A DNA stretch of 64,000 bases, taken from a virus. Lineage: Duplodnaviria > Caudoviricetes. The stretch lies in IMG/VR virus record IMGVR_UViG_3300021376_000006; one strand, given 5' to 3'. Each line of letters opens with the position of its first letter. The stretch's first letter is position 1. This document shows, in pieces, positions 4,408-60,261 of this stretch. A model generated the notes under the pieces. It ran no database searches and was not told the DNA's origin. It saw only the letters and a program-made list of their open reading frames with translations. The position numbers were made by a program, and so were the translations under genes.

Positions 4408-4454
4408 GTGTTTAATCCAATAATGATTATCACAGTATTTAGTTCAATTTTGAC

Positions 4455-4836
4455 ATCCAGCCACTTCTGTTACCGAGCAGGCTGGGTCCATCTCTGAGTC
4501 TTAGTTTAGCTTAGGCAGCTAAACGAACCTCAAACAGCTCATCATTGGCTGCATTTATGGTTTTGCTTCTTTTACGGAGATCGCCTACCGTGTTGTCCAT
4601 ATCCTTACTTATTGCCCTGTCGAAACCAAATTCAGGCCCATCAAAAAGCATTTTCAAGGTGTCCCTCTCCGATACAACGAGGAATCGCTAACCTTGTCTG
4701 CCTTCCCCACTCTTATCAGCTTCCTCATACTTACCGTGGTGGGTCGTTATATCATCGGGCAAAATGCTTTTTGGTGGACCTGCCCGGGGTCGAACCGGGG
4801 TCCAGAACACCTTTCATTCAACTTCATACAACAATT
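4455..4836 (-). ncRNA. ssrA: circularly permuted (two-piece) tmRNA; acceptor piece ~4836-4772, intervening segment 4771-4640, coding piece 4639-~4455
   Basis: T-arm CCCGG-TTCGACC-CCGGG then CAGGTCC-A-CCA ending at 4772 lies upstream of 5' end GGGCCTGAATTTGGTTTCGAC at 4639; acceptor stem has G3.U70; tag ORF 4552-4511 encodes AANDELFEVRLAA*; outer ends approximate. Confidence 0.9.
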
Positions 4837-4960
4837 TTAATCTTTATTTTCTTTGACCCATTTGTAATAGATCAGTACGCATGCTAGTGTTATGGAACCT
4901 ATTAATAATACGCCCAATAAAAAACCAACTATAAAGTAAAGCTGCTCGGTTCCAATTTAC

Positions 4961-12207: not shown

Positions 12208-12214
12208 CAGTTGC

Positions 12215-13717: not shown

Positions 13718-14083
13718 TTAAATTGCTATACGTTGTTGTCCGGCACGCCGCATTTCGCCGCGCATGATTGTTTTCATTACCAATGTGTCATTTATTTTGG
13801 CAACAGGCACTGTGATATCTGTTTCTAAATCAACCACATGAATTGCTACACCTTCGGGTAAATCTTTTAAAAATTTATGCCTTTTCAACAACAGCTTGCT
13901 AAAAAAATCTGCAACCTCGGCAATGCCGATAGGTTCGGTGTTTCTGGGATCGTTAATACGATCAACAAAATGTGTGGTAATTTTTACCGGTATATTGTAT
14001 GGTACGTATCTGGTGTTTAACACCTGGGTATAGTGCTTGGCCAGTTCAGCGTTGTTTTCTGTGAGAAATTCTTGCAAACGCAT
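13718..14083 (-). CDS. hypothetical protein with MRLQEFLTE N-terminus
   Basis: shared N-terminal motif; HFVDRINDPRN. Confidence 0.6.
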   Translation of the reverse strand: MRLQEFLTENNAELAKHYTQVLNTRYVPYNIPVKITTHFVDRINDPRNTEPIGIAEVADFFSKLLLKRHKFLKDLPEGVAIHVVDLETDITVPVAKINDTLVMKTIMRGEMRRAGQQRIAI

Positions 14084-16200
14084 TATGTTTTAATAATGAA
14101 GTTGATAGCCAGGTACGGAGGTAAGTTTTGATTTGTGCCGCTGACACCTGCAGAGTTTATTGTTACGCCGGTGCTGGCATAATCAGTCCAATTATAAAAA
14201 CTAGCATCTGTACCGGCGTCTGGACCTTCCCCAATCCATGGTTCATTTGGTCTAGCTTGATTAGGGGTGTTGCTAAGAACGGTGGTACTAGTTGGATTGC
14301 GTTCCCATGCTGCCGGTACCTCTGGGTCACCAGCATTAAGATAATCATTTATACCATAAAACAGAGCCCCACTCACAGGATCTCTTAATTGATGACGATG
14401 TGTAGGATCAGTGGTATTGTGACTGTGACTTACCACTACTGCATCTTTTGTGCCACCTGTGTTACCTATAGCATACAATGTGCCTGCGCCAACTGGCATT
14501 CTATTTCTGTAATCGGGCAGGTTAAATGTATTAACTCCGTCTCCGTTGCCAAAGGTGCTGCCAAGTATGGCAAACAATGCAGCATAGGTGGTTCTTGACA
14601 CTGCAAGGCCATTGCATAACAAGAATCCTGTAGGTGCAGACACTGTGGGCCACATCATCAAGCTGCCAGTAGGTACACTGTTGTTTTGTACAAAAGCAGT
14701 TGTAGCAACTGCGGTGTTAGATGTTCCCGGAGGCATAGTAGGAGTAAATATTTGTCCTCCTACGTGTAAATTTCCACCAAGACCTATACCTCCAGTAACA
14801 ACCAATGCACCGGTTGATGTTGATATAGCTGCTCTCGACGAACCTACAACTAGGTTGCCAGTCACTGCTAAATTTGCCGCGACCGAAGAATTGCCCGATA
14901 CAGTTAAATTGCCGCCCACTGAAGCAGTTAAACCAACATCCAATCTACCAGTTAAAGATACTGAATTGGCATGCATGGTATTCAACCGCATTCCTTGACT
15001 ACCAACATTTGAACTGATATTGGCGGTTGGGATCAAATCAGCACCCAAGTATATTGTTGCCACATTACTAACAGTAACAAAAGTATTTGCAGCATTTACA
15101 TTGCCTACTAAAATACTTTCTGAAAAAATGTTTTTAAAACGGTTAGTTGTATTTCCTAAGGTAAAAGTTACGTTTGCACTTGGGATAATATGGCCAAAGA
15201 AATTAGCAGTACCATTAACTAAACCCGACAGAATATCTACGTAATTTTTTGTAGCAAAAGTCAAAGCCGGAGATGAATTTGTTGGTTGTGCATATGCTTC
15301 GGCTAATCCTGTTTGATAATTGCCTCGTAAAAACGGTGTTTGCGTTCCGCCTGTTTTGAGACTTAATATAAAGTCGCGATTGTTAGTTTGATTGTGCAGC
15401 GTGACTGTGCCGCTAGTGACATTTGCAACAAAATCACTGGCTGCACCAAAAGTCAGGCCACCATCGTTTGTCAATGATAAAGATCCGTTAATAGATCCTG
15501 ACATGTTATTTCTTACGAATGTGTTACCAAACACAGCAACGTTGTTTACATATATAGATTGGGCAACTTCACTGTTACCCCAGAAAGTGTGTCCCAGTGT
15601 GCTGTTGAGATTGAGTCCCTTTTTTATAGTAGCAAAACCAGCTGTATCAGATGCAAAAGGACCGTCTTTGCTCCAGATACCCACTAATATATTGTCGATA
15701 AAAAATTTAATTACAACATAGGTAGTTGACGGTGGGGCATCTGTTACTGTGTCCGGGATAGCCCCTGAATTACCAGTGGCAAGTCTTGACAGAGGTCCTA
15801 CCAAGCGCCATTCAGTACCTGTATATATTTTAAGCTGTCCATTTGTAGTATCATACCACTGTTCACCAGTGTATGAGTTGGTCGGAGTTGATGCACTCAG
15901 AGTCATACCAGCCAAGGTTTTCCAAATGGCGTTGCCCGAGCCTTTAGTAGCAGCAACGTTAACACTTAAAAGTTTTGTAGTGCTGTTAAACCATAACTGT
16001 CCAGGAATAGGTGCAGACGGTTCTGTGGTTTTGGCAAAGTTTTCCATGAGTCTTACAAAGTTTTGATTTAAGAATAAACCATAACCTTTGTAATTTTTTC
16101 CTAATAGAACCAAGCTGGTATTGGCACTATCTGCGGTATTATCCAGCAAACCGCCCGCAATTAGATCTTCTCCGTTACTTAATGTAATATTATATGGCAT
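14083..16200 (-). CDS. tail fibre / baseplate fibre protein with tail-collar domain
   Basis: VLLGKNYKGYG...ENFA and GQLWFN/GEQWYD repeats, beta-rich repeats, collar VPTGSLMMW...GFLLCNG...TFNLPDYR, NLPPYLAINFIIK end. Confidence 0.85.
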   Translation of the reverse strand: MPYNITLSNGEDLIAGGLLDNTADSANTSLVLLGKNYKGYGLFLNQNFVRLMENFAKTTEPSAPIPGQLWFNSTTKLLSVNVAATKGSGNAIWKTLAGMTLSASTPTNSYTGEQWYDTTNGQLKIYTGTEWRLVGPLSRLATGNSGAIPDTVTDAPPSTTYVVIKFFIDNILVGIWSKDGPFASDTAGFATIKKGLNLNSTLGHTFWGNSEVAQSIYVNNVAVFGNTFVRNNMSGSINGSLSLTNDGGLTFGAASDFVANVTSGTVTLHNQTNNRDFILSLKTGGTQTPFLRGNYQTGLAEAYAQPTNSSPALTFATKNYVDILSGLVNGTANFFGHIIPSANVTFTLGNTTNRFKNIFSESILVGNVNAANTFVTVSNVATIYLGADLIPTANISSNVGSQGMRLNTMHANSVSLTGRLDVGLTASVGGNLTVSGNSSVAANLAVTGNLVVGSSRAAISTSTGALVVTGGIGLGGNLHVGGQIFTPTMPPGTSNTAVATTAFVQNNSVPTGSLMMWPTVSAPTGFLLCNGLAVSRTTYAALFAILGSTFGNGDGVNTFNLPDYRNRMPVGAGTLYAIGNTGGTKDAVVVSHSHNTTDPTHRHQLRDPVSGALFYGINDYLNAGDPEVPAAWERNPTSTTVLSNTPNQARPNEPWIGEGPDAGTDASFYNWTDYASTGVTINSAGVSGTNQNLPPYLAINFIIKT

Positions 16201-16251: not shown

Positions 16252-18360
16252 TTACTTTTTACGCCCACTTTTCATATTTGCACACCAGTGGTACATTCGA
16301 CCACGCTCACCACCGGATTTTTTAGCTTTTTGACGCAAACTGGTCACTGATCCTGAACAACTAGCACCGGCACGTTTGACTCTACCCGGACGACTTTGGC
16401 CCTTGACTTTGCCATCGGCAAAGTTTTCATCTATTTGTTGGTTTAAAAACTGTTGTACAGCTTGCAAATGATCGCTGCCAGCTACGTATACACCTTGTTT
16501 TCTTGAGGCCAAAAACTTATCACGCAGGTCGTTAACAGACTTAGCCACACGACCCGCCCGGTTAGGATATTCTGCCCAGTTGTTGGGCCACATCAGTCGT
16601 TCGCCTAGCTCAAAAAACTGTCGCACATTGCGTTCTGTGGCTGGTGCTTGACTCATTCTAACAAAGTCATATTCACCTTCACTCACAGCCTGTAAAAACT
16701 TTGTCAGCGTTTCAGCATCAAACTTTCTGTCAGGGAAATAGTTGGTGCTGGGTTGTGTGCCGAGTATGCGATTAAAAATAGACACACTGGGGTCCGACCC
16801 AATCTTACCTTTTACAGTATCATTTTCTTTTATGTTAGAGAACAGAACATATAAGAATGCGGCCGGATAACCTTTGATTTTGTGCGATAGCAAATCATCA
16901 TCCCAACTACCTTGATAGCTATCAATGATTCCCGCAGTAAGTTTGCGATCCATACCGTTGCCCTCGTACCAGGCGCCGTGCTGTTTGGCAATTGCCTTTA
17001 CTCGTTCGGTATCAGAATCTGATAACTGTAACCGCTTGCCGTGTTCTTGTCCGACAATAGCAGTATCATTGCCTATGAAAAGCACCCGGCTGGTTTTGGC
17101 TTCTGTAACAGATTCTCCGCCGCCTCCATCACCTCCACTATCACCAGATTCCGAACCGTGAGCACCACTGCCGTAATAACCATAGCCAGGATACCAATAA
17201 CCGCCAAAATACCTGTTGCGGCGTCGACGCTTTTTGCCTTCCGCCATGTCTTGTTTGTTTTTGATATGACTGTATACCCGGCGTAGTTGTTCTGCGTCAA
17301 GATCGTCAAGATGCTTGTGCCCAGTGAGTTTTTCTGTCATACGCAAGAAACTGGGTTCATTGTCCCAGGCTATGCCACGACGGTTAGCAAGATCGTGTAT
17401 CATCTTCTTGGTTATTTTGCCTTCCGTCACACCCGGCTTCAATCGTGTCAGTTCATACACCACTTGATCGCCATGGTCTTCACTGTAGTCATCATAGCCC
17501 CATGCGGCCGCATATCTTTGAACCAACCTGTCATATAATTTTGCTCTACTCTCACTGTTTTGTCCCGGATCAACATCTTTTTTGGCTGAAAAAATCAAAC
17601 GCCATGGTTCGTGTTCTTTGACGAATTTTTGTATGGCATTTAAAACCGTGGCAAATATTCTTTGTGCATCACCTTCACCAGTAATTTCTTGACTGTTGTT
17701 TCTATAAAACTCAACTTGCCATTCGTTGTTCCCTTCGTGATTGAACATGATGCTTAGGTACTTACCATCCGGCAATCGTACTAATGTGTCGTAATCGCCA
17801 AACTCACTTTTCTGCTCGATTTCATGTGGGTAGGGCTGATTAAACGCTTCGTCTAGATCATCCTGGTATTCAGGATTACGAGCAAGTTTAACCGCTCTCT
17901 TATTACCTAACACCCCAGGATTGAACCATACTGTACTTTCAACATCCCAAGCTCGCATTATGGTGTCTTGCCAATTATTCTCTGCAGTATAATGTACAGC
18001 ATCATAGTCCTGGCCAATTGCTGCCCAAGGCATTTTGGTCAGCAACTCTATAGGATTCTTAAATTGTGCCCCGTATTGTTGTGCAACAGCAACAGCATCA
18101 CGGTCTGACCTGATAGTTAGTATCTTTGCCGCGGGAGCGACATCAAACAAAAATCCTGTATCTCCAATCCATTCGGGCATTTCTGCATCACACCAACGCA
18201 CCCATTCGCTGGTTATTCCTTCAGGAGTTTTGATAGCGGTGCTGGTCCATACTTTGACTTGTGGCTTTAATCCTAAGGACTCATTGACAGTGTTAGGATG
18301 CGGTGCATATAGCTGTGTGCCTAATCCTGCTGCCTCGGTTATAAACTCGTAAGCTCTCAT
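16252..18360 (-). CDS. multidomain protein with [10 protein letters not shown]-terminus (putative internal head polyprotein)
   Basis: modules separated by hydrophobic-X-E motifs; basic Cys-containing C-terminal module. Confidence 0.7.
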
Positions 18361-19277
18361 TTTTTATTTTTATGTTTTTCTGCATAAGCCAGTACACCCT
18401 CACGCACCCAAGCACCATCTATATGTGCCTGTGCCCTGGTGTGCAGTCTTTGTTTATTCAATGGACCATCACCATTCACATTCTGCCAAAACTCTGTCCA
18501 ATCTATCTCACCAAAGTCATAGTGACCACGATCATCATTCCACTTGAGATCAGGATCTGGTAACTGGACACCAAGGTATTCAGCCTGCGGCACAGTGGCA
18601 TCCACGAACTTCTGACGCAGTTCATCATTGGTGTGACGCTTGATGCCCCAGGCCATGGTCTTTTCTGTGTTAACACTCTCAGCGTCAGGTGGGCCAAACA
18701 TGGCTAGAGTTTTCCACCACCAGCGATCCACAGCCGCCTGCACCATGTCTCGTTGCTCATCAGTACCCTTCATCATGACCATAAGCTGATCATAGCCCTG
18801 GCGCTGATGAAAACTTTCTTCTTTACAGATGCGTATCATGGCACGGGCATATGGACCATAACTGCAACGACACAGGGGAATCTGATTCATGATGGCCGCA
18901 CCATCTACCAACCAACCTATCACTGCTTGATCAGCCCAGGTCACGGCAGGATAATTAAATATGCTGCTGTATTTGGCTTGTCCTGTGTGCAGTTCCGCTA
19001 ACATTTCTTCACGACTGATTCCCAAAGTCTCTGCGGCGCTATACAAATATATACCATGCCCGCCTTCATCCTGTACTTTGGCCAGTAGAATGGCCTTGCG
19101 TTTCAGTGTTGGTGCTCGAGTGATCCAACCGCCTTCTGGCAGCATGCCTACGATTTCACTGTGAGCATGTTGACTAATTTGTCTTATAAGAGTCTTGCGA
19201 TAGGCATCAGGCATCCAGTCCTGAGGTTCTATTTTAATTTCATTGGCAATCTTATAATCAAATTTTTCTTGGCTCAT
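18357..19277 (-). CDS. paaA: 1,2-phenylacetyl-CoA epoxidase catalytic subunit A
   Basis: [50 protein letters not shown] diiron motifs. Confidence 0.95.
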
Positions 19278-19435
19278 TTTACTATCTTAAATCGTGTACA
19301 TTTTGACTGAAATGGATACTCATTGTAAAATTCTGCCCAATTTCTACAATCTTCTAATGTATTATACTGTTTTTTTACAAATAACACAGGAGGGTCACTT
19401 GATAAAATATACACAGTTAAGATATACACAAACAT
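19274..19435 (-). CDS. 53-aa Cys-x15-Cys mini-protein (not in ORF track)
   Basis: [53 protein letters not shown]; AAGGAG upstream; ATGA overlap with paaA. Confidence 0.65.
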
Positions 19436-19453
19436 CTCAAATGTGCTCCTTGT

Positions 19454-19645
19454 TCAAGTGGTAGGTGGGGGTTCATAATTTTCTACCCATGTACACCTTA
19501 ACGTGGCCACTTTAGGCTGTTCAAGCAAATGGGTGGCTTCCGCCCAGCATTCCTGCATGGTAGGAAAACCACCCATTTCAACTGATTCGAGTCCAGGTGT
19601 GCCTGTGTTCAGCGTGATAAAAAAGTAGACATATAGTACATACAT
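19454..19645 (-). CDS. Cys-x17-Cys mini-protein
   Basis: hydrophobic N-terminus, GFPTMQEC-x17-C; paralog of 25960..26145. Confidence 0.65.
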   Translation of the reverse strand: MYVLYVYFFITLNTGTPGLESVEMGGFPTMQECWAEATHLLEQPKVATLRCTWVENYEPPPTT

Positions 19646-19800
19646 GCCTATATTTATCAGAAATAGCGTTTGTAATTAGTTCAAACCAATCACTCCTTTA
19701 CCCCAGTGCATCTGGTACTAATTTTTGTGTAAAATATATGTAAAACATATGGCCATACCCAGCACTAAAAATATCATGGCTTTTTTTAATTCACTCATTG

Positions 19801-19983
19801 TTATTCCTTTGTTTCAAAACATATCATGTATTGTGTGCCGCAGTATGGACAACTGGCCATACCGTTTTCGTTAAAATCTAAAAATACCTTGGGATGCGCG
19901 GACCAAAATTCCATAGCAGGGTTTGGACAAAACGCAGGAAGTTTTTTTTGGTTTATTTGGACAGGCTTGGCAGGCGGTTTCAT
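19801..19983 (-). CDS. zinc-finger (CHCC-type) protein
   Basis: CP...HPKVFL...CPYCG. Confidence 0.8.
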   Translation of the reverse strand: MKPPAKPVQINQKKLPAFCPNPAMEFWSAHPKVFLDFNENGMASCPYCGTQYMICFETKE

Positions 19984-20399
19984 TAAGTATCATCTGTTTT
20001 GTCATGGCTGGGATAGTTATGGCTGGCGTATCTTATCAAGACCACACTGAAAGTGATTACAAGTGTAGATCCCGCGACTGCAATCATTTGCCAAATGTCA
20101 ATGGCAGCGTGACTCATGATATCTACCATGTGGCGAGTGAGTGCTGTAATTGCTATGTATAATAAAAATCTTACGGGCATATGATTGGTATTAAAATAAA
20201 TTCCAACCATAGCTCCAATTTCCAAGTATATAAACAATAAAAGCAAATCACTTACACCAGCATGATGTTTAGAAAACAGTTCAAAAAAAGTCCACGATGC
20301 TGCCCACACTGTGGCAGCACCAATTCCAAACAGTGCCAGCTTATGGAAAGTTGCTACCAGTGTGTTGGCAACATGATTGATTTTTTCACTGTCAACCAT
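19983..20399 (-). CDS. phosphate-starvation-inducible PsiE-family membrane protein
   Basis: LLLFIYLEIGAMVGIYF...PVRFLLYIAITALTR. Confidence 0.8.
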   Translation of the reverse strand: MVDSEKINHVANTLVATFHKLALFGIGAATVWAASWTFFELFSKHHAGVSDLLLLFIYLEIGAMVGIYFNTNHMPVRFLLYIAITALTRHMVDIMSHAAIDIWQMIAVAGSTLVITFSVVLIRYASHNYPSHDKTDDT

Positions 20400-20408
20400 A
20401 CGTGCTTA

Positions 20409-20882
20409 TCACCACATGTCACGAATTTGTTTTTTCTTGCGCTCGGCCACTACCCAGTTTCCACGCAGAGCAAAATACAAACCGCCAACCCAGAGAGAGA
20501 AATGTAAATAATCCGTCAGCATAAAAGTTATCAAACTCTCGGGTTTCAACACAACCCAAATTACACCAGTGGCCACACAACACATCACAATGCCGCTGAA
20601 TCTGGTCAGTGCATCACCGAACTCTGCAGCATAGGGCCAGTCACGGATTTTGTACAATGTGGCTGCACCACCCACTAGCAGTCCCACTCCTGCCAGTACT
20701 TCACCATAAGCAACAAACCACCACACCAAGGGACCAAGTCCAAATGCTGCTCCGCCTGCGGGATCAAAGGGCAGTTTGCTCAAGCCCTGTGTGATAAAGA
20801 TCAAGGCCAGAGGAATCCTTAACAACAGATTGCTCCAAGCAAAGTCAGGAAGCATGTGCCAATAATTTTTTACCGATATCAT
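20409..20882 (-). CDS. DoxX-family membrane protein
   Basis: LLLRIPLALIFITQGLSK...GEVLAGVGLLVG. Confidence 0.7.
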   Translation of the reverse strand: MISVKNYWHMLPDFAWSNLLLRIPLALIFITQGLSKLPFDPAGGAAFGLGPLVWWFVAYGEVLAGVGLLVGGAATLYKIRDWPYAAEFGDALTRFSGIVMCCVATGVIWVVLKPESLITFMLTDYLHFSLWVGGLYFALRGNWVVAERKKKQIRDMW

Positions 20883-20893
20883 ATATTACTCCA

Positions 20894-21064
20894 TTAGTTT
20901 TGTGTAAAAGCTGAATTTGTTACTAGTGTGCAACGAACTGATTTTACTCTTGGATCCTTCAATGCCTCAACTTTAACTGCTTCACACTGTTCCTGTAGCG
21001 CATAGGCAGCTACCCTGTGATCATTGCCTGGATTGAACAGCCACGCAATGTACATTATCCACAT
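20894..21064 (-). CDS. 56-aa Cys-x17-Cys mini-protein (not in ORF track)
   Basis: MWIMYIAWLFNPGNDHRVAAYALQEQCEAVKVEALKDPRVKSVRCTLVTNSAFTQN. Confidence 0.6.
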   Translation of the reverse strand: MWIMYIAWLFNPGNDHRVAAYALQEQCEAVKVEALKDPRVKSVRCTLVTNSAFTQN

Positions 21065-21364
21065 TTATTTCACAGTCATTATGTATTGTGCCAGCAGTTT
21101 TGCATCTGCCTCTGACACATGGGGTTGCTTGGGCATGGCCATGGCGCCCCAGACTCCACCGCCACCATTTCGAATTTTTCCAGCGAGATACTCTACTGCA
21201 TCTTTTCTATCTTTGTATTTGGCTGCTACTTCTTTCAAAGATGGACCTACTACCCTGTTCTGTGCCTGATGACAACCAATACAACCAGACTTTCTAAACA
21301 ATGCGTCATCTGCCTGAACAGGCATTGATAATATAAATAATACTGTAAACATTACATTTTTCAT
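21065..21364 (-). CDS. class I cytochrome c (c551/c552-like)
   Basis: signal peptide, CIGCH heme motif, VGPS, WG...MP axial Met. Confidence 0.9.
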   Translation of the reverse strand: MKNVMFTVLFILSMPVQADDALFRKSGCIGCHQAQNRVVGPSLKEVAAKYKDRKDAVEYLAGKIRNGGGGVWGAMAMPKQPHVSEADAKLLAQYIMTVK

Positions 21365-21393
21365 GAACTTCCTTTCACATTAAAAATTTAAAC

Positions 21394-21576
21394 ATGCGTT
21401 TTTTATATCTAATTTTATCACTGTTACCTGCTCCATTATTTTTACTACTTGGTATCTTCAACCTCTTTCATTCACCCTCTCATTGTGGTTCATTTCAATA
21501 TGAAATGACTACGATGTGGTTTGTCATGTTTTTTGCACATCTTTTACCTTGGTTAAAAAAAATCAAAACTTCATAG
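21394..21576 (+). CDS. small membrane protein
   Basis: two hydrophobic segments; only plus-strand ORF in the cassette. Confidence 0.5.
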   Translation: MRFLYLILSLLPAPLFLLLGIFNLFHSPSHCGSFQYEMTTMWFVMFFAHLLPWLKKIKTS

Positions 21577-22096
21577 CAATTTTTACAGCCGCTTTTGATC
21601 CAGCGTGAACCAATTTACACCATAATTTTAATGCACGACCTGGTACAACTATAACATCGCCCAAAGCATCTTGTCTATGACGGATTTCATCAAAACGCAG
21701 TTTTTTCAAAATATCAATCAACTGCTGCTGATTGTTAACTGTGATACCAGCGAGGTCCGCATCATACACGGATAAAAATTCTATCTGCTCCAAATAATGC
21801 TGATCAACAAAAGTTTCTACTGTGGCAATGGTGTGTTTAATCCAGTTAGGTCCCATGACAGCAGGAATGAATCCAGTTATGAAACCAGCAACTGCCCACA
21901 GTGGCACAAGCAGGCTGTGCTTGGATCTAGGCAAAATGGCATTGACCTCAGCCAGATGCTGTGATTCTTGAGCTAAATGTTCTTGCATAAGATCGGCCGT
22001 TGCTGAATCATGGCGGAACAATTGCATGGCTCGATAGATCCAGACTGCACCTGTCTCTCCAGCCTGATCAGATCTAAGTGCTTGTACTAGATCCAT
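21563..22096 (-). CDS. COQ7-like demethoxyubiquinone hydroxylase (ferritin-like diiron)
   Basis: LRSDQAGETGAVWIY, ESQH, VETFVDQHY, DEIRH. Confidence 0.8.
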   Translation of the reverse strand: MDLVQALRSDQAGETGAVWIYRAMQLFRHDSATADLMQEHLAQESQHLAEVNAILPRSKHSLLVPLWAVAGFITGFIPAVMGPNWIKHTIATVETFVDQHYLEQIEFLSVYDADLAGITVNNQQQLIDILKKLRFDEIRHRQDALGDVIVVPGRALKLWCKLVHAGSKAAVKIAMKF

Positions 22097-22745
22097 TGCT
22101 TATTTTTTCTTTGTGATAGTCACAGAGGTCTGTAAACATGCATTCATTGCATCTAGGACCCCGTGCTCGACAAACATACTTACCATACTCTATAAGCCAT
22201 TCATGTGCGCCCCAACGATATTGATCTGGAGTTCGTTGCTCAAGAACTTCTGCTGTTTTGTGTTCTGCCTTGGTCTTGGCAATGCCTAGCCTATTAACAA
22301 TGCGATGCACATGGGTATCCACTGCAATCGCAGGTTCATTGAATACAAAACGCATCATAATGTCTGTGCTTTTGCGTCCTACCCCTGCCAACTGCATCAA
22401 CTGTTTTCTATCGTTGGGCACAATGCCGGCGTGACGCTCTAACAATTGTTGGCTCATTAATTTGAGATTCTTGGCCTTGTTGTTGTACATGCCTGCAGGC
22501 CGAATCAATAGTTTTAGTTCATCTATGTCTAGAGCCAAAATCTCCTCAGCAGTTCTAGCTCGGGCAAACAGATTACGGCAGGCTTCTGCGGTTCTTTCGT
22601 CTTTGGTCTGAGCAGACAATGTCACACCAACCAGGCTCTTGAATGCGTTATTGTATATCTTTTCTTTGGGCGGTCTATTAGGTTTAGGATTACGAGCATG
22701 AAACCTTTCATAAACAGTGATCAGTTTTGTTTTAACCATTGTCAA
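22074..22745 (-). CDS. nth: endonuclease III (HhH-GPD, 4Fe-4S)
   Basis: LSAQT, GVGRKST, AVDTHV, C-x6-C-x2-C-x5-C. Confidence 0.92.
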   Translation of the reverse strand: MTMVKTKLITVYERFHARNPKPNRPPKEKIYNNAFKSLVGVTLSAQTKDERTAEACRNLFARARTAEEILALDIDELKLLIRPAGMYNNKAKNLKLMSQQLLERHAGIVPNDRKQLMQLAGVGRKSTDIMMRFVFNEPAIAVDTHVHRIVNRLGIAKTKAEHKTAEVLEQRTPDQYRWGAHEWLIEYGKYVCRARGPRCNECMFTDLCDYHKEKISNGSSTST

Positions 22746-23905
22746 ACCACCACACTAGACGGTGTGGTGTATCCAATCAAGATATCGTTGCCCACATCGT
22801 TAATGTCTCTGTGTCCGGTCAATGCCATAGTAGTATCTAGTTCACTATGGATAATTTCCAAACATTTTGTAACTCCTTGTTCGCCCATAGCACCAAGGCC
22901 ATGTAAAAATGCTCGGCCTATCATAGTGCCACGAGCACCTAATGCCCATGCTTTCAAAACATCTTGCCCGGATCTAATACCACTGTCCAACCATACTTCA
23001 CAATCTTTGCCCACCGCCGCTACAACACTTGGCAATGCCATGATAGTGGACACAGCACCATCCAACTGTCTGCCACCGTGATTGGACACTACTATAGCAT
23101 CTGCTCCTGTATCTCTAGCCAATTTTGCATCATCTCTGTGTAGTATGCCTTTCAGCACCAGTGGCCCGCCCCAGCGTTTTTTGATCCATTCTATGTCATG
23201 CCAGGTCATGGTGGTATCAAATTGTTCTGCGGTCCACGCAGCCAAGGATCCCATGTCTGTGACTGATTCTGTATGACCAATAATATTACCAAAGTTACGG
23301 CGTTTGGTACGCAGCATGTTCCAACACCATTTGGGTTTGGTCATCATGTTAAAAACATTTTTGGCAGTGAGTTTGGGTGGAGCACTCAGTCCATTATGGA
23401 TGTCTTTGTGACGCTGCCCCATGACTTGTAGGTCCAGTGTAAGCACAAGAGCACTGCATCCTGCCACTTTGGCTCTATCAATCAGTCTTCCAATAAAGGT
23501 TCGATCCTTCATCACATACAGTTGAAACCAAAAAGGTTTAGTGGTATGTGCAGCAACATCTTCTATAGAACAAATACTCATGGTAGACAGGCAGAAAGGC
23601 ACTCCAAATTTTTCTGCTGCTCTGGCAGCTAATATTTCACCGTCAGCGTGTTGCATGCCTGCAAACCCTGTGGGTGAAAGTGCCACAGGCATTGTGACCT
23701 TGCGGCCCAGCATGGCAGTGATCAATTTTCTATCACTGACATTTTTGGCCACACGCTGATGCAGTTTTATCTTGTCAAAATCCGTTGTGTTGGCTCTATA
23801 GGTAGACTCTGTCCAAGACCCACTGTCGCAGTAGTCATAGAACATGCGAGGTGTGCGTGATTCATGCAAACGCCGTAGATCTTCAATGCAGGTTACCACT
23901 GTCAT
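22742..23905 (-). CDS. lldD: FMN-dependent alpha-hydroxy acid dehydrogenase (L-lactate dehydrogenase-like)
   Basis: SPTG, WFQLY, LKGI, SNHGGRQLD, DSGIRSGQD, GRAF. Confidence 0.92.
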   Translation of the reverse strand: MTVVTCIEDLRRLHESRTPRMFYDYCDSGSWTESTYRANTTDFDKIKLHQRVAKNVSDRKLITAMLGRKVTMPVALSPTGFAGMQHADGEILAARAAEKFGVPFCLSTMSICSIEDVAAHTTKPFWFQLYVMKDRTFIGRLIDRAKVAGCSALVLTLDLQVMGQRHKDIHNGLSAPPKLTAKNVFNMMTKPKWCWNMLRTKRRNFGNIIGHTESVTDMGSLAAWTAEQFDTTMTWHDIEWIKKRWGGPLVLKGILHRDDAKLARDTGADAIVVSNHGGRQLDGAVSTIMALPSVVAAVGKDCEVWLDSGIRSGQDVLKAWALGARGTMIGRAFLHGLGAMGEQGVTKCLEIIHSELDTTMALTGHRDINDVGNDILIGYTTPSSVVV

Positions 23906-23906
23906 G

Positions 23907-24284
23907 CTATTTTATTCCTTTTGGCCAGGGCCATTTTTCGTCGTCGCTGAGTTCTTGATCACGTGGACTGCGATCAGGTTGTCTAAACTGTTCGTCAGTG
24001 GGACGATCAGGATATTCTTTTTGCACTGTACGCACCACTAACCATGTGACAAAAGCCATGCTGACAATAGCCAAATGACCAAACACATTATAGCCAAGGT
24101 ACATTATTTCGCCAGTGTATAAACTAAATGCCAACGCCCAAAAACAGGCCAGCCACACACTGATAATATATTTCATCTGTGCAGGTGCGTTTTTTAGTCC
24201 GTTTTTATTAGGATCTAGAAGATGATAAAAATTCCTAGCCAGGAAGAATAAAAATTTGAATAAGCTGTACATAGGGCCTTTCAA
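23907..24284 (-). CDS. membrane protein
   Basis: two TM segments; DPN.NGLKNAP. Confidence 0.55.
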   Translation of the reverse strand: MKGPMYSLFKFLFFLARNFYHLLDPNKNGLKNAPAQMKYIISVWLACFWALAFSLYTGEIMYLGYNVFGHLAIVSMAFVTWLVVRTVQKEYPDRPTDEQFRQPDRSPRDQELSDDEKWPWPKGIK

Positions 24285-24320
24285 AAAAAAATTTTAAAAT
24301 GATTTTTACAACACCAATAA

Positions 24321-24349
24321 ATTGTACGATAATAATTGAATTAGGTCAA
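24321..24349 (-). promoter_or_regulatory. sigma70-type promoter for the 24284-lldD-nth-coq7 run
   Basis: TTGACC-N17-TACAAT. Confidence 0.7.
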
Positions 24350-24369
24350 GCAATCTGGCTGTTCTTTGA

Positions 24370-25113
24370 TTATTCTATCATATAATGGTTGAAACTAAAC
24401 CATCCTTGCCATTCTGATCCCATGATAGAATATGATTGTTCGGCAACCTCTGAAGAAATTCGTTGTTTCATTCGATTGTGTGACGCCGATTCAATCATAA
24501 GTTGAACTTGACAGCTTCTTTCCATAGTTATGAACCACCAAGCAGCAGCATCTACTGTGCTACCAACAGTAAGTAAACCATGATTTTGCAGTATCGCTGC
24601 TTTGTTATTGCCCAATGCTTTGGCTATCCTTTGTCCCTCTTCCAGTTCAACTGCAACTCCACCAAAATCATGATACACAGAATGGTCATTGAAAAAAGCA
24701 CAAGCATCCTGTGTGACTATATCTAAACGTCGACCAAACACGCTCCAAGCGCGACCATAAATGCTGTGTGTATGTGCTGCTGCCATCACATCAGGTCTGG
24801 CATGGTGAACTGCATTGTGAATAGAAAATCCTGCCAGATTAATCTGTCCATTGCCATTGATAACTGAACCAGTTTCGTCAACCTGTATGAGATTACTCAC
24901 ACACACTTGACTGAAGTGACAGCCAAAAGGATTCATCCAAAATGTATTTGGAAATTCAGGATCTCGAGCAGTTATATGACCAGCCACGCCTTCATCAAAT
25001 CCAAACTTACTAAAAAGTCTAAATGCTGCGGCCAAACGCTGTTTTATATGCGATCGATGTTGATCAACATCAGAAAATACTGGTGGATTAGGCAAGTTCA
25101 TAAGATTGCTCAT
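24370..25113 (-). CDS. class II aldolase/adducin family protein
   Basis: GHITARDP, HTHS, LQNHGLLTVG metal-binding motifs. Confidence 0.9.
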   Translation of the reverse strand: MSNLMNLPNPPVFSDVDQHRSHIKQRLAAAFRLFSKFGFDEGVAGHITARDPEFPNTFWMNPFGCHFSQVCVSNLIQVDETGSVINGNGQINLAGFSIHNAVHHARPDVMAAAHTHSIYGRAWSVFGRRLDIVTQDACAFFNDHSVYHDFGGVAVELEEGQRIAKALGNNKAAILQNHGLLTVGSTVDAAAWWFITMERSCQVQLMIESASHNRMKQRISSEVAEQSYSIMGSEWQGWFSFNHYMIE

Positions 25114-25149
25114 GGATTTAAACCTTTACAATTTTTTTTTACATAAAAC

Positions 25150-25365
25150 TTAACTTTGACCAAATATTCGTCTTATTACATAATTTGTATGACGATTGTC
25201 TTGGTCAAGATAACAGATTTCACACAATGCTAATTTCGGCCCATTATGCCCATCAAGAAATTTATGACAGGCAGCACAGTGAATAAACTTTTCGACAATT
25301 TGCCAGGCTTCTGTGTGCTGTGGTACTAGTTGCCAATCTTTATTCTCATGCAGCCAATAGCTCAT
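25150..25365 (-). CDS. small CxxC...CxxC zinc-finger-like protein
   Basis: CAAC and CEIC; no signal peptide. Confidence 0.45.
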   Translation of the reverse strand: MSYWLHENKDWQLVPQHTEAWQIVEKFIHCAACHKFLDGHNGPKLALCEICYLDQDNRHTNYVIRRIFGQS

Positions 25366-25628
25366 GCACCGCCCCATTCATTTTTAGCCACCTCACTTGC
25401 TTTAGGTGTGTCTAATCTAGAATTTGAATTTGGTCTAATTTTTTTAAGATTTTTTTGAAATTGTTTTTTACGCCTGCGTTTTTCTAATGTGTCTATTACA
25501 AATCCGGGTAACACATGCAACACTATGTACACTCCAAACAGTATGCCCAGCACTGGTCCCCAAAATGCCATGAACGCCCATTTCAGTTTATCTATCAAAA
25601 AATATGTCTCCAACAAAAGGTATGACAA
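25362..25628 (-). CDS. small membrane protein with basic tail
   Basis: hydrophobic segment followed by KRRRKK. Confidence 0.45.
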   Translation of the reverse strand: MSYLLLETYFLIDKLKWAFMAFWGPVLGILFGVYIVLHVLPGFVIDTLEKRRRKKQFQKNLKKIRPNSNSRLDTPKASEVAKNEWGGA

Positions 25629-25683
25629 TCATTAGGCCAATGACAGTGCCAAAAAAACCAAGTATTTCAATCATAAGTTAATC

Positions 25684-25944
25684 TCAATATGTTTCAGCAT
25701 TCGGATTATACCCACGCATGTTCCATTGATACAGCTTTTGTTCGTGCCAATAAGTCTTAAAAGCTTCTTTTGTTTTAAACTTTTTCTGAAACTCCTCTGT
25801 CACAGATAAACAACTCCACAAGTCTTGACCACCCATTTCACCTTTCATGAACAAAGTGTCACAGTCCCAATAGTATTTTTCAAGTTGTTTATATGGCAAC
25901 TTAGCAGCATTCAAAGCAAGAGCAAGAGTTATTGATAGTAACAT
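25684..25944 (-). CDS. small exported protein with two Cys
   Basis: signal peptide; YWDCD...SCLSV. Confidence 0.55.
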   Translation of the reverse strand: MLLSITLALALNAAKLPYKQLEKYYWDCDTLFMKGEMGGQDLWSCLSVTEEFQKKFKTKEAFKTYWHEQKLYQWNMRGYNPNAETY

Positions 25945-25959
25945 ATAACTTATTTTCTG

Positions 25960-26145
25960 TCAAGTTTTATTTTGATATCCGTCTTTCCAAGTGCATAGAA
26001 TATCCGAAACATTAGGATTTTTCATTTGTATTCGAGATTCTGCCAAGCATTCTGACGTGGTAGGATATCCTGCAATGGTCACAGGTTTCAACCCTACCAA
26101 ACCAGAATTAGTGGTGATCAACATATACACGATCAACACATACAT
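25960..26145 (-). CDS. Cys-x17-Cys mini-protein
   Basis: start moved to MYVLIVY; GYPTTSEC-x17-C; paralog of 19454..19645. Confidence 0.65.
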   Translation of the reverse strand: MYVLIVYMLITTNSGLVGLKPVTIAGYPTTSECLAESRIQMKNPNVSDILCTWKDGYQNKT

Positions 26146-26149
26146 GACC

Positions 26150-27349
26150 TTATCTCTTGAACTTGGCCGCTTCTTCTGACCCGCCTGTGGCATTGCCCTT
26201 GCTGTAGCTATGAGCACCCACACCTGCCAGTTGACCATTCTGCACCACCAGATATTCATTGCGTATTGGGCGACCTTCAAAATGGCATTCTAACACTTCA
26301 CGCACACCTGCGGCATAGCGTGTTTGTGCTGACAAACTGGTGCCAGAAATATGCGGTGTCATGCCATGCCAGGGCATTGAACGCCAGGGATGATCCTGTG
26401 GTGCGGGCTGCGGGAACCATACATCGCCAGCATAACCTGCTAGATGTCCACTTTCCAATGCACGGGCCACAGCATCACGATCGCATACCTTGCCACGTGC
26501 AGTGTTCACAATATAGCTGCCACGCTTCATCTTGGCAATCATGGCATCATTAAACAAGTGTTCTGTTTCTGGATGAAGTGGGCAGTTGATGGTCACAACA
26601 TCCACCACACGAACCATGCTTTCTACGCTGTCATGCCAGGTAAGGTTTAGTTCTTGTTCAACATGTGCAGGCAAACGATGACGATCAAAATAGTGTAGAT
26701 GCACATCAAATGGTTTGAGTAATCTCAATGCTCGTAATCCAATACGACCTGCTGCCACTGTGCCTACATGCATGCCTTCGATATCATAACTGCGACTTAC
26801 ACAGTCAGCAATGTTCCAGCCACCATCTACAACCTGTTTGTAACTGGGAATGTAATTGCGTACCAGACTCAACATCTGCATCACAATGTGTTCTGCCACA
26901 CTATTACTATTACAGTATGTGATTTCTGCTACAGTAATGCCACGATCCATGGCTGCTTGTAAGTCCACATGATCTGAACCAATGCCTGCTGTGAGTGCCA
27001 GTTTAAGTTTTGGTGCTCGGGCAATTCTTTCTGCTGTAAGATAAGCTGGCCAGAACGGCTGACTGATAATCACTTCAGCATCATGTAGATTGTTCTCCAA
27101 TCTACTGTTGGGTCCATCTTTGTCTGAAGTCACAACAAATTCATGACCTAAATTTTCTAAAAATTTTCTTAGACCTAAACCACCTGTAACACTGCCCAGT
27201 AGTTCACCTGGAGAGAAATCCACAGCATGTGGACTTGGAACGGTCTGTCCATCTGGGTAGTGCGTGATTGTGGGAATGCTGTCTCTTGCGTAACTTGTTG
27301 GATGACCATTTACCGGATCATCATATAAAACACATAGAACTTTAGCCAT
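26150..27349 (-). CDS. fdh: NAD-dependent formate dehydrogenase (metal-independent)
   Basis: MAKVLCVLYDDP, GIGSDHVDL, NSVAEH, AAGRIG, YFDRH, NTARG, GDVWFPQP, TPHISG. Confidence 0.96.
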   Translation of the reverse strand: MAKVLCVLYDDPVNGHPTSYARDSIPTITHYPDGQTVPSPHAVDFSPGELLGSVTGGLGLRKFLENLGHEFVVTSDKDGPNSRLENNLHDAEVIISQPFWPAYLTAERIARAPKLKLALTAGIGSDHVDLQAAMDRGITVAEITYCNSNSVAEHIVMQMLSLVRNYIPSYKQVVDGGWNIADCVSRSYDIEGMHVGTVAAGRIGLRALRLLKPFDVHLHYFDRHRLPAHVEQELNLTWHDSVESMVRVVDVVTINCPLHPETEHLFNDAMIAKMKRGSYIVNTARGKVCDRDAVARALESGHLAGYAGDVWFPQPAPQDHPWRSMPWHGMTPHISGTSLSAQTRYAAGVREVLECHFEGRPIRNEYLVVQNGQLAGVGAHSYSKGNATGGSEEAAKFKR

Positions 27350-27361
27350 TGAGCCTCCTTG

Positions 27362-27390
27362 AATAGATTTATTATACTATTTAATCTATT
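27362..27390. promoter_or_regulatory. 8-bp inverted repeat upstream of fdh, overlapping a TTAAATA box
   Basis: AATAGATT-N13-AATCTATT. Confidence 0.4.
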
Positions 27391-27397
27391 ATATGAT

Positions 27398-28078
27398 CTA
27401 CAAATTTCTTTCCCAGATCACAAAAGGATCATTGACCACAATAGTGCCGTCGGGTCTGGCCATGTAATTGCCACTATGTAGATCCACTGAAAAATTGTGT
27501 TTGCGAGCAAATCTTGAAACTTCGTATACTGTCTTTAGTAGGCCATCTGCTCGTTCGGGCCCACCCAATAGGTCAATGACTTCTTGTACATCTTCAAAAT
27601 ACTTGGGATTGTAACCTGGTGAGTAATAATCTTCGGCACTGGCAAACTCAGCATAACTTTTTATTTTGTTATACGCTGCTTGTAAATTGCCTCGGCCTAT
27701 CTGTTTGGTCACTTGATCAATCTGTGCTACTAAATCTCTAACAGTGTTGGGTAATTCTTCTAGTGTTTCCATTCTGGCCTGAATATATCTTTTACCTTGA
27801 AATTCAAAACTTTCAAATCCTGAGAATCTGGGCAAGTGCGGATTGTTGCGATGCTTGTTGCAATAGTTAATCCAATCGACAAACATTCGTTGATCGGGAC
27901 TGAAATCTTGTACACCTTTACGATAACCAAACACAATATACACTTGACCGTTGGGTTCTAAATATGCATGTTTGTCTATACCACCGCCTAAATAAGTATA
28001 ACCTTTATCTGCTAATACATTTGAGATGCCTCTATGTATTGATCCGGCCATTTCTGTGGTGAAGTCCGCTGCTCTCAT
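27398..28078 (-). CDS. protein kinase-like domain protein with MRAADFTTE N-terminus
   Basis: LGGG glycine loop, DLHSGNYM catalytic loop, NDP metal site. Confidence 0.75.
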   Translation of the reverse strand: MRAADFTTEMAGSIHRGISNVLADKGYTYLGGGIDKHAYLEPNGQVYIVFGYRKGVQDFSPDQRMFVDWINYCNKHRNNPHLPRFSGFESFEFQGKRYIQARMETLEELPNTVRDLVAQIDQVTKQIGRGNLQAAYNKIKSYAEFASAEDYYSPGYNPKYFEDVQEVIDLLGGPERADGLLKTVYEVSRFARKHNFSVDLHSGNYMARPDGTIVVNDPFVIWERNL

Positions 28079-30597: not shown

Positions 30598-31838
30598 TCA
30601 ATGATCTCCGGATTGTCTTTGCCATACAATTTCATAAGGTAGCCGGCCACTGCATCTGCTTCCTGTTCAATGGGAGATCCTGGATATGCTTGATCACCGT
30701 GTACTCTATTGTCTTCGTGTTGTTTTCTATGCACCAATTCATGTGCCACAGTACGCATGATATCAATCAAATTCCTATTACCAGTGTATACCCACATGAT
30801 GTCATCATTGTCGTCGTAGTATCCGGTTCTGTGTTGATCTGGACCTTCTTTGGCATCTTGGAATCTAATTCGTGGTAATTCTTGTTCAATGTTCAATTTA
30901 CGCACACACCATTGGATAAAATCACGCAGTTGATCTTCGTGTTCTTGATAGGTGCTTTCATTTAATGACAATAAATTATAATCCTGTTCAATTTTAGTCA
31001 AGCAAAATATTGCATCATCCACAGTGGCACCTACTCTATACATAAAATCTGGACCTGTATCAAAATAGGGACGACCATCTTCAATGCTGCCTTGTTTGAC
31101 TAGAACATCGCTATTAGTAATTGGAACGAACATAATCGCATCTAGTGTATTTTCATCTCTTTTTCTGGTGCATCCAAAACCGCCTTTTAGATTTGGAAGT
31201 GGTTTAGTCTTGAATCCTAACTTTGCTAGTTCAGTGGTTATGATTTTCCGAAACTTAAAAAAATCACCTGATGGTGTTGATTCTGACCCATCGTCATCAC
31301 CAGCCGGGCCTACAAATTCTTTTAAAGATTTATCGCCATCACCAGTTACTGATTTTTTTTGTATCAAGTGACTGCGGTGTAGATCATTGTTGGCTCCTAA
31401 TTTTTGAGCAATGTGTTGCCAGGCTCCGCCGCTGGCATCATCTTGTACAGTCAATGTTCTTACCGTGGGTTGATCTCTAAATTGATCTTCGAGCCTTTTA
31501 TAAATTTCATCGAGCATCTTGGTTACGATGCCAGAAAATTTGCCTGCATGAGCATCCAATACATTGATTACTAGTTCGGGTAAATCATATCCAACACTGA
31601 CTTGTAAGTAGAAGTGACCCTTGGGATCTGCTAGGCCATCATAATATTCTTGATTCTTGACATACTGACGCTTGGTGCTGGCAAACACAGGATTGTATCC
31701 ATAACTGTCGCCGGTGTACAATCTTGCCTTTGGATAGGCCGAGGACCATACATTCTCAATTATCCGTTTAACTATACCTGTGCTGTATTCTCCAGCAGTT
31801 TGTTCGGTATTTTCAGTTATAAAATCTCTAGCTCGCAT
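30594..31838 (-). CDS. multidomain protein with C-terminal HExxH metallopeptidase-like domain
   Basis: TVAHELVH and E.EAD; MRARDFITE N-terminus. Confidence 0.75.
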   Translation of the reverse strand: MRARDFITENTEQTAGEYSTGIVKRIIENVWSSAYPKARLYTGDSYGYNPVFASTKRQYVKNQEYYDGLADPKGHFYLQVSVGYDLPELVINVLDAHAGKFSGIVTKMLDEIYKRLEDQFRDQPTVRTLTVQDDASGGAWQHIAQKLGANNDLHRSHLIQKKSVTGDGDKSLKEFVGPAGDDDGSESTPSGDFFKFRKIITTELAKLGFKTKPLPNLKGGFGCTRKRDENTLDAIMFVPITNSDVLVKQGSIEDGRPYFDTGPDFMYRVGATVDDAIFCLTKIEQDYNLLSLNESTYQEHEDQLRDFIQWCVRKLNIEQELPRIRFQDAKEGPDQHRTGYYDDNDDIMWVYTGNRNLIDIMRTVAHELVHRKQHEDNRVHGDQAYPGSPIEQEADAVAGYLMKLYGKDNPEIIE

Positions 31839-32481: not shown

Positions 32482-32488
32482 TTTGTAT

Positions 32489-33586: not shown

Positions 33587-33607
33587 TTAGTTTCTTAAAA
33601 AGTCAGC

Positions 33608-33647
33608 AAAAAGCCCTACTGCAAATATTTAACATCTGCAGTAGGGC
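33608..33647 (-). terminator. terminator hairpin with TTAAATA in its loop
   Basis: GCCCTACTGCA / TGCAGTAGGGC 11-bp stem then TTTTT. Confidence 0.65.
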
Positions 33648-33667
33648 CGGCAATGATTAGTGTATGT

Positions 33668-34225: not shown

Positions 34226-34233
34226 GTTACACC

Positions 34234-34356
34234 TCATTTAGATTGAATCCATTCACCGGCACGACTTAGGTCCCGGCCTGCACCGGAAATCGTGCCACCA
34301 ATTGTGCCACAAGCTGACATGCTCAAGACGCATACAAAACAAACAAAAGTTTTCAT
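34234..34356 (-). CDS. entericidin-like small lipoprotein (40 aa, not in ORF track)
   Basis: MKTFVCFVCVLSMSAC-GTIGGTISGAGRDLSRAGEWIQSK. Confidence 0.65.
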   Translation of the reverse strand: MKTFVCFVCVLSMSACGTIGGTISGAGRDLSRAGEWIQSK

Positions 34357-34377
34357 AATAGTATTATATAATCTAAG

Positions 34378-34923: not shown

Positions 34924-34931
34924 TAGCGTTT

Positions 34932-36027: not shown

Positions 36028-36078
36028 TTACGTCTCCAAAAATTACAAAGTTAAGTTATTATACCCAATAATGGTATT

Positions 36079-55219: not shown

Positions 55220-55229
55220 TGTTATTATA

Positions 55230-55667
55230 CTACTTAGCGAATGTAATTGCAATCTTCTTGGGCTTTTGTTCTTCGGGAACAATATGCTCCAAACTAACTG
55301 CCAAAATACCATTAATTACTGTAGCGCCTTTAACTTCCACATTGTCAGCTAAAGTAAAATGACGAGTGAAAGTTCTTGCACTGATGCCACGGTGCAAGTA
55401 TTCGTATTCATCTTTTTGCTTTTGTTCGCCTCGAATCGTTAGAACATTTTCTTTGTATTCAATATCAAGTTCATCTTCACTGAAGCCAGCAACCGCTAGT
55501 TGGATGGCATAGTGATTTTCGTCAATTCGAACAATGTTGTGAGGCGGATAGTTGTCGGCTTTACTATTGGCAAAAGTGCGTCCTAGTTCGTTGAACAATC
55601 TATCAAAGCCTACAGCATGGCGATGAAGTGTTGGTAAATCAAAAGTGCTAATTGTATAAGTTGTCAT
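55230..55667 (-). CDS. small heat-shock protein Hsp20 (IbpA-like)
   Basis: GFDRLF, YPPHNI, LAVAGF, YLHRGIS.R.F, NGIL. Confidence 0.92.
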   Translation of the reverse strand: MTTYTISTFDLPTLHRHAVGFDRLFNELGRTFANSKADNYPPHNIVRIDENHYAIQLAVAGFSEDELDIEYKENVLTIRGEQKQKDEYEYLHRGISARTFTRHFTLADNVEVKGATVINGILAVSLEHIVPEEQKPKKIAITFAK

Positions 55668-57694: not shown

Positions 57695-57728
57695 CATCAA
57701 TTATACTAAATTTCACAGTGTGCTACAA

Positions 57729-60203: not shown

Positions 60204-60261
60204 GAATTGTATGGCTAGTATATTATACTAACGGAATGACGTCAACTAATTAATATGTCAT

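Follow-up and report, generated by a model that had tools for sequence, protein, structure and literature searches.

Why would a phage carry a complete enzyme for the oxidation of formate? The question is raised by a gene, fdh, located within a stretch of 64,000 nucleotides from the IMG/VR record IMGVR_UViG_3300021376_000006 (Caudoviricetes), the whole of which is referred to below as the window. A first-pass annotation of this DNA had described the gene product as a complete metal-independent formate dehydrogenase (FDH) dependent on nicotinamide adenine dinucleotide (NAD+), and had proposed that an inverted repeat upstream of the gene may bind a regulator. In methylotrophs, formate is the last intermediate in the oxidation of methanol and other one-carbon (C1) compounds, and the FDH step yields NADH and is essentially irreversible. 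Since formate ends C1 oxidation and FDH yields NADH, fdh is read here as an energy-harvesting auxiliary gene. From the sequence comparisons presented below we consider it likely that it is a functional auxiliary metabolic gene of a very large T4-related freshwater phage, coding for a single-subunit, cofactor-free FDH (formate + NAD+ -> CO2 + NADH).

The formate dehydrogenase gene and its product

The gene is an open frame of 399 codons on the minus strand, from an ATG start to a TAA stop, with a ribosome-binding site directly in front of it:

26150..27349, minus strand: fdh, NAD+-dependent metal-independent formate dehydrogenase (EC 1.17.1.9), 399 amino acids (NCBIfam, Pfam and PDB matches)
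27354..27360, minus strand: Shine-Dalgarno sequence AAGGAGG, 4 nt 5' of the fdh ATG (read from the sequence)

A GGAG-type site also precedes the start codon in all other phage copies of the gene. The protein matches the NCBIfam equivalog NF005750 with 697.5 bits (cut-off 329) over profile positions 1-385 of 386. The next-best NCBIfam family, PGDH, reaches 158 bits against its own cut-off of 454, and the scores with the phosphoglycerate, lactate and glyoxylate dehydrogenase models all lie far under their cut-offs. The Pfam matches 2-Hacid_dh (PF00389, residues 63-364, E = 8e-18) and 2-Hacid_dh_C (PF02826, residues 156-335, E = 1.3e-48) correspond to the two-domain fold of the D-2-hydroxyacid dehydrogenases, in which the catalytic domain is interrupted by the Rossmann NAD-binding domain. 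Both reference structures align without a gap, namely the Moraxella enzyme (PDB ID: 2gsd) over residues 1-398 with E = 3.4e-224 and the Pseudomonas sp. 101 enzyme (PDB IDs: 2nac and 2nad) with E = 3.9e-211.

Substrate and catalytic residues were identified by comparison with the Pseudomonas sp. 101 enzyme, in which we take them to be Pro97, Phe98, Ile122, Asn146, Arg284, Gln313 and His332. The numbering of the window FDH counts Met1 and is therefore offset by +1, so that the corresponding residues are P98, F99, I123, N147, R285, Q314 and H333; they match 2gsd and 2nac column by column. Among 20 relatives, all of these are invariant except I123, which is kept in at least 90%, and the same invariance holds for D222 and R223. 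The first-pass annotation had correctly recognised the Arg (in TARG), the Gln (in PQP) and the His (in TPH), but it had misplaced the Asn: the catalytic one is N147, of the C-N-S motif, rather than N149, which opens the NSVAEH motif it had named. It had also taken the Asp of YFDRH as a marker of NAD+ use, and the sequence agrees: the acidic NAD-selecting site is present as D222-R223 and is invariant within the FDH clade. The equivalent Asp221 of the Pseudomonas enzyme, which follows the second Rossmann strand, is presumably what determines the choice of NAD+ over NADP+, and a preference for NAD+ can thus be inferred for the window FDH. With its NF005750 match and all catalytic and cofactor residues in place, the protein is, judged by its sequence, an intact and ordinary member of the metal-independent FDH family, as had been proposed, and is predicted to be active.

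One variant of the same phage, found in another sample (contig L010, positions 10001-11221), carries a 21-nt tandem duplication corresponding to about positions 26680-26700 of the window. The residues FDRHRLP are thereby doubled, precisely in the NAD-specificity loop (YFDRHRLPFDRHRLP), and the FDH has 406 amino acids; the other contigs have the 399-residue form. The duplication represents either natural variation in the cofactor site or an error of assembly.

The gene is carried by a phage

The exact FDH protein was found on 8 contigs, one of which belongs to the 0.2-1 Mb class. Five of the 8, each from a different lake sample of the Joint Genome Institute (JGI), show the same phage neighbours as the window, and the DNA of L010 is 99.5-99.99% identical to it. 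At the level of sequencing runs, 21 lake-water metagenomes contain 50% or more of the words sampled from the stretch spanning both fdh junctions, and runs of a second study contain part of this stretch; no RNA run was found to contain the locus. The downstream junction is spanned with zero differences by a 403-nt run contig, and also by a run contig of a strain that is about 95% identical and comes from the second study. The genes that mark the surroundings as phage DNA, or that lie directly 5' of fdh, are the following:

14083..16200, minus strand: tail fibre/collar protein, 705 amino acids, a virion gene (15 PHROG tail-fibre/collar families, best E = 8.3e-22)
27398..28078, minus strand: gene 5' of fdh, probably starting with MRAADFTTE; weak similarity to a protein kinase of the T7 gp0.7 type (phrog_15752, E = 6.7e-8)

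The stop codon of the latter gene lies 48 nt before the fdh ATG, and the gene also precedes fdh on four independent contigs (L093, L095, L096 and L097). On the other side, the gene order downstream of fdh is the same on L093, L094 and L096. The Collar domain PF07484 was found on a JGI contig matching the window. As expected of a phage auxiliary gene, FDH is therefore flanked by phage genes on both sides, reproducibly. As the first-pass annotation had supposed, the FDH gene is phage-borne; it is not a host contaminant.

The window as a whole looks like part of a large phage, with 96 of its 114 open reading frames on one strand and most of them without a family match. It also encodes an ATP-dependent DNA ligase, DnaK, a permuted transfer-messenger RNA (tmRNA), a cytidylyltransferase and one or more radical SAM genes. 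An isocitrate lyase lies just past the window end, where it was recognised by a Pfam match on a matching contig; in this region (L098, positions 1-624, 9421-9657 and 11964-12761) isocitrate lyase, ribosomal protein S21, Hsp20 and ClpS are found near dnaK. Further upstream of fdh, an amidoligase-domain gene of 840 amino acids (28075-30597) is uninterrupted both in the window and on four contigs. In L010 (positions 6583-9275) it is split into 339 and 541 amino acids, with a 166-nt length difference at 29567-29733, which reflects either strain variation or an assembly difference.

Related copies in other phages, composition and selection

Sequence searches recovered metagenomic FDHs that form a tight group (85-98% identity). 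A search of viral catalogues, which had been suggested as a check, returned at least nine IMG/VR viral contigs with an FDH 85-88% identical. Among them is G003 (98 kb, estimated 28% complete; it is the contig of locus L009), in which the T4 major capsid protein gp23 (324 bits) lies about 0.9 kb and the T4-type portal gp20 (343 bits) about 5 kb from FDH. FDH, gp23 and gp20 are thus found within 8 kb (positions 29374-37094), a metabolic gene inside a head-gene module. The neighbours are different elsewhere: one member of the FDH clade adjoins gp32, gp59, RNaseH and PhoH, another RNaseH, PhoH and dCMP deaminase, and a further one DnaK, Hsp20, ClpS and ribosomal protein S21. Because the flanking genes vary among phages, FDH moves as a one-gene module, in agreement with the single-gene route to NADH that had been proposed for it. 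Five IMG/VR records, fragments estimated to be 4-28% complete, gave no match to the Pfam models for gp32 and the tail sheath. Among the GenBank phages, megablast with positions 24000-30600 of the window gave no match and tblastn with the FDH gave matches of at most 45% identity, so that no isolated phage there carries this FDH. The best tblastn matches were unannotated records labelled "Staphylococcus phage"; they look like host contigs and were not taken as phage FDHs.

The ratio of non-synonymous to synonymous substitutions (dN/dS) was computed among the copy of the window, those of six phage loci and that of the cellular locus L013. It ranges from 0.02 to 0.08, with dS > 1 in nearly all pairs; synonymous sites are saturated in most of them. 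The third-position GC content of fdh is 0.36, close to the median of the window genes (0.33), while the median of the cellular FDH loci L014-L092 is 0.79. The gene is under strong purifying selection and has phage codon composition, and it is old in phages and appears to have been kept working.

Two observations concern the junctions of other FDH copies. In the viral contigs L002 (8981-9364), L004 (11176-11559) and L007 (8175-8660) the stop codon of FDH overlaps with the beginning of a permuted tmRNA gene of betaproteobacterial type, and L004 has in addition a 13-tRNA array upstream and dnaK downstream. Logan contigs from the runs X1, X2 and X22 match the FDH coding sequence and then diverge to another leader; since they diverge exactly at the start codon (27349), other FDH-carrying genomes, phage or cell, seem to share the same lakes.

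Phylogeny of phage and cellular copies

A careful maximum-likelihood tree places the phage FDHs in a freshwater clade which as a whole is supported at 100/99. The viral or cellular context was checked for 14 members of this clade. L106 is a bacterial chromosome whose Rho is 98% identical to that of Candidatus Methylopumilus; its FDH is 85% identical to the window FDH without gaps, including YFDRHRL. L108 and L013 (FDH 89% identical) represent the origin region of an actinobacterial chromosome, with the order dnaA-dnaN-recF-gyrB-gyrA-FDH-tRNA-Ile-tRNA-Ala-ppi-crgA-pknB, and L110 is a cellular contig of 64% GC. An initial view of the whole 61-row clade as viral was accordingly wrong, L106, L108 and L110 being cellular. 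The suspicion that L013, labelled an Actinomycetota metagenome-assembled genome, was a mis-binned phage was also rejected: it had arisen from an 831-residue neighbour resembling a phage topoisomerase II family, and the matching 54-kb contig is a normal actinobacterial origin region.

The Methylopumilus group forms the first branch of the FDH clade, in which the phage sequences are paraphyletic. A 13-row clade (99/97) encloses the actinobacterial group, and its remaining verified members are all phages. An approximately unbiased (AU) test rejects a topology that unites the verified phage rows to the exclusion of the cellular ones (p = 0.0007), for a group that was named after the tree had been seen. 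The simplest history compatible with these sequences would be a capture of the gene from a Methylopumilus-like host, diversification among phages, and later transfers from phages to plankton, although the direction is not proven. The more specific proposal, in which the diversification took place in huge T4-like phages and the gene was handed back to unrelated plankton including acI-type Actinomycetota, is tentative, and we lean towards doubting it. The actinobacterial FDH does look acquired, because its third-position GC is the lowest of 13 local genes. A named Methylophilaceae FDH (P0052) was considered as a guide to the direction of transfer and was uninformative, as it belongs to another clade and another locus.

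It should be mentioned that in these freshwater Actinomycetota the phage-like FDH sits between gyrA and the tRNA-Ile/tRNA-Ala pair (L013, positions 3001-4606; L108, positions 5312-10119). If the proposed history is true, lytic giant phages would have carried a working gene of energy metabolism across the boundaries of phyla. The mixed tree of phages and cells provides a concrete case in which to ask if metabolic genes are moved between phyla by large lytic phages, and this possible role as carriers is the more novel part of the proposal.

Host and proposed role

The host of the phage is likely a member of the Methylophilaceae. A betaproteobacterial methylotroph is proposed because of the basal Methylopumilus branch of the FDH tree, the type of the tmRNA, and the Methylophilaceae viruses of Lake Baikal. 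The tmRNA is located as follows:

4420..4864, minus strand: permuted two-piece tmRNA of betaproteobacterial type, 21 kb from fdh (ARAGORN, tag AANDELFEVRLAA)

It matches the Rfam family beta_tmRNA (RF01850) with 98.2 bits (gathering score 84) and RF04321 with 130 bits, and the tmRNAs of two other FDH phages are likewise assigned to beta_tmRNA above the gathering score. As for the viruses, Coutinho et al. 2020 (PMC7678222) described T4-like viruses from Lake Baikal which they assigned to Methylophilaceae and which carry methanol dehydrogenase, pqqA, radical SAM, class II aldolase and cytidylyltransferase genes. The last three kinds of gene are also present in the window.

Downstream of fdh there is a series of genes with metabolic matches, all in the same orientation:

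18357..25113, minus strand: co-oriented redox/metabolic genes downstream of fdh (Pfam and NCBIfam matches), including those below
24370..25113, minus strand: class II aldolase, intact (Pfam/NCBIfam)
22742..23905, minus strand: LldD-type flavin mononucleotide (FMN) dehydrogenase, intact (Pfam/NCBIfam)
within 18357..25113, minus strand: HhH-GPD glycosylase, COQ7-like protein, cytochrome c, DoxX and PsiE (Pfam/NCBIfam)
18357..19277, minus strand: PaaA, 1,2-phenylacetyl-CoA epoxidase subunit A (equivalog, 516 bits)

The PaaA gene stands alone, with no PaaB-E nearby, and constitutes an orphan di-iron oxygenase subunit in a phage. The redox genes suggest a wider investment of the phage in host respiration. 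In the proposed mechanism, fdh would be transcribed from its own sigma-70-like promoter, with the box TAGTATAAT, and during infection the host formate pool would be oxidised to CO2. The resulting NADH would feed respiration and ATP formation during the synthesis of phage DNA and protein, possibly together with the neighbouring respiratory gene products (the LldD-like dehydrogenase, the Coq7-like protein and cytochrome c). In a Methylophilaceae methylotroph such as Candidatus Methylopumilus or a relative, phage FDH would thereby push C1 carbon to full oxidation for energy.

Several observations weigh against parts of this picture. The split that separates the Methylopumilus branch from all other members of the clade is supported at 84/63 only, and the verified cellular FDH nearest to that of the window is the actinobacterial one (89%), not that of Methylopumilus (85%). 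The redox neighbourhood is not common to other FDH phages, and since FDH neighbours differ between phages, the link of fdh to these particular genes may be accidental. Finally, profile scans found no T4-type major capsid, portal or replication genes in the window; those of this phage lie beyond its limits, and T4-type ones were found on related FDH contigs.

The upstream region

The inverted repeat had been reported upstream of fdh as 8-bp arms at 27362-27390, and it exists exactly as given. Its loop contains a -10-like box:

27362..27390, no strand assigned: perfect 8-bp inverted repeat, arms AATAGATT (27383-27390) and AATCTATT (27362-27369), 13-nt loop (read directly)
27371..27379, minus strand: TAGTATAAT, -10-like box of the TATAAT type within the 13-nt loop above, 22 nt 5' of the fdh ATG (word enrichment; putative promoter)
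55224..55232, minus strand: TAGTATAAT before the gene at 54870-55181
57700..57708, minus strand: TAGTATAAT before dnaK
60222..60230, minus strand: TAGTATAAT before the gene for a 543-residue protein (58558-60189)

The word TAGTATAAT occurs 5 times in the window against 0.81 expected, a number reached in 0 of 100 shuffles. The four copies listed are on the coding strand, 30-78 nt before their genes, and the same 9-mer precedes the FDH of the viral contig L005. It is thus a candidate promoter class of this phage. The T4 late-promoter word TATAAATA is not enriched in the window (5 copies against 4.6 expected). A terminator scan around fdh found none, and the fdh leader, searched as an exact pattern, had no match among IMG/VR or JGI metagenome contigs.

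Alternative explanations

Whether the inverted repeat is an operator for a regulator of fdh, possibly a formate-responsive one, can be judged from its position and its distribution. The arms of the perfect palindrome flank the -10-like box, with 2 nt between its end and the ribosome-binding site, a repeat of at least this length arises in only 4% of shuffles of the 60-nt stretch upstream of fdh, and a search for the exact pattern gave a single occurrence in the window and none in shuffled sequence. Against this, an inverted repeat of at least 8 bp precedes genes in 8 of the 113 upstream stretches of the window, there is no second copy of the site in the window, and no regulator gene is adjacent to fdh. 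The leader folds as RNA with -6.5 kcal/mol (z = -0.57 against shuffles), so the stability of the hairpin is at chance level. The repeat is conserved only in the near-identical L010 and is missing before every other phage FDH. We regard an operator as highly improbable; the proposal of a regulator site is not supported, and the repeat is left without a supported regulatory role, being no better than chance. A likelier reading is that of a sigma-70-type promoter lying by chance within a short AT-rich palindrome and giving fdh its own transcript.

An FDH that is active need not serve energy metabolism. It could instead clear the formate released by the phage's own reactions, with NADH as a by-product and in a host which need not be a methylotroph. 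The sources would be peptide deformylase, acting on the bulk of phage protein, and 7-deazaguanine or folate synthesis by way of GTP cyclohydrolase I; each of the two enzymes releases one formate per turnover. Such a general role fits the presence of FDH in phages with quite different neighbours and of related copies in unrelated phyla, but the amount of formate from these two enzymes is small compared with the C1 flux of a methylotroph, fdh is not adjacent to folE or que genes in the window, and the basal cellular relatives of the FDH belong to a methylotroph. We therefore think clearing unlikely to be the main function, and prefer the reading of fdh as an energy-harvesting gene. That the FDH is instead host DNA, brought in by a chimeric assembly or a mis-binned contig, or a recent non-functional passenger, is a concern with any sequence of metagenomic origin. 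It is nourished here by close cellular homologues (85-89% identity) and by the host DNA present in some so-called phage records matching the FDH family. The same junctions in many independent assemblies nevertheless make a chimera or a contaminant very unlikely, and they answer the possibility, raised at the outset, of a host origin of the locus. The phage-like codon composition, the saturation of synonymous sites between phage copies at dN/dS of at most 0.08, and the gp23 gene about 0.9 kb from FDH on another viral contig also speak against it. Taken as a whole, this explanation seems to us scarcely credible.

Comparison with known systems

The FDHs of Moraxella sp. C-1 (2gsd/3fn4) and Pseudomonas sp. 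101 (2nac/2nad) have the same length, catalytic set and NAD-selecting Asp-Arg pair as the phage enzyme. What distinguishes the window FDH from the bacterial ones is that it is phage-encoded, has phage codon composition, and is preceded by a short promoter-like leader of its own where a host regulatory region would otherwise stand; in a Methylophilaceae genome, unlike in the phage leader, a LysR gene precedes FDH. A close system among methylotrophs is the FDH of Candidatus Methylopumilus (L106), which belongs to the freshwater LD28 methylotrophs and shares the FDH clade with the phages. It is chromosomal, located between molybdenum-cofactor genes and rho/rpmE, and has the composition of its neighbours, whereas the phage copies form separate, diversified branches.

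Genes for formate oxidation have been reported in other phages or phage-like elements and read, like fdh here, as auxiliary metabolism. They include Gp48 of Citromicrobium phage RXM, which resembles the Fdn-N beta subunit (PMC8953757), an FDH of the methanogen type on a Methanoregula phage-like element (PMC13323075), fwdH of a virus from an anaerobic digester (PMC13394424), and an FDH in a deep pelagimyophage for which the enzyme type is not stated (PMC7029224). The first three are parts of, or tied to, metal- and cofactor-dependent multi-subunit enzymes that need host partners, unlike the window FDH, which is a complete catalyst in one polypeptide. A full-text literature search, in which most subscription journals were not included, turned up no account of phages with a metal-independent NAD-type FDH, and this enzyme is apparently widespread in phages but undescribed. 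Because it needs no metal, cofactor or partner, the phage FDH would be easy to test directly, and the phage copies constitute a diversified natural collection of variants of an enzyme in wide use for regenerating NADH.

Phage auxiliary genes for the oxidation of methane and methanol are already known, namely pmoC, methanol dehydrogenase and pqqA. If the role proposed here is true, viruses could intervene in the C1 oxidation of lakes at its beginning as well as at its end, and the share of C1 carbon that is respired rather than assimilated in infected methylotrophs would shift. The Methylophilaceae viruses of Lake Baikal (PMC7678222) are a close parallel. They are large T4-type low-GC freshwater phages with helpers of C1 oxidation, as the window phage probably is, and they share the proposed logic of boosting the energy yield of the host from C1 compounds. 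They differ in the step concerned: for the Baikal viruses the first one, from methanol to formaldehyde, is reported, together with a deformylase and no formate dehydrogenase, whereas the window phage would supply the last, NADH-yielding step.

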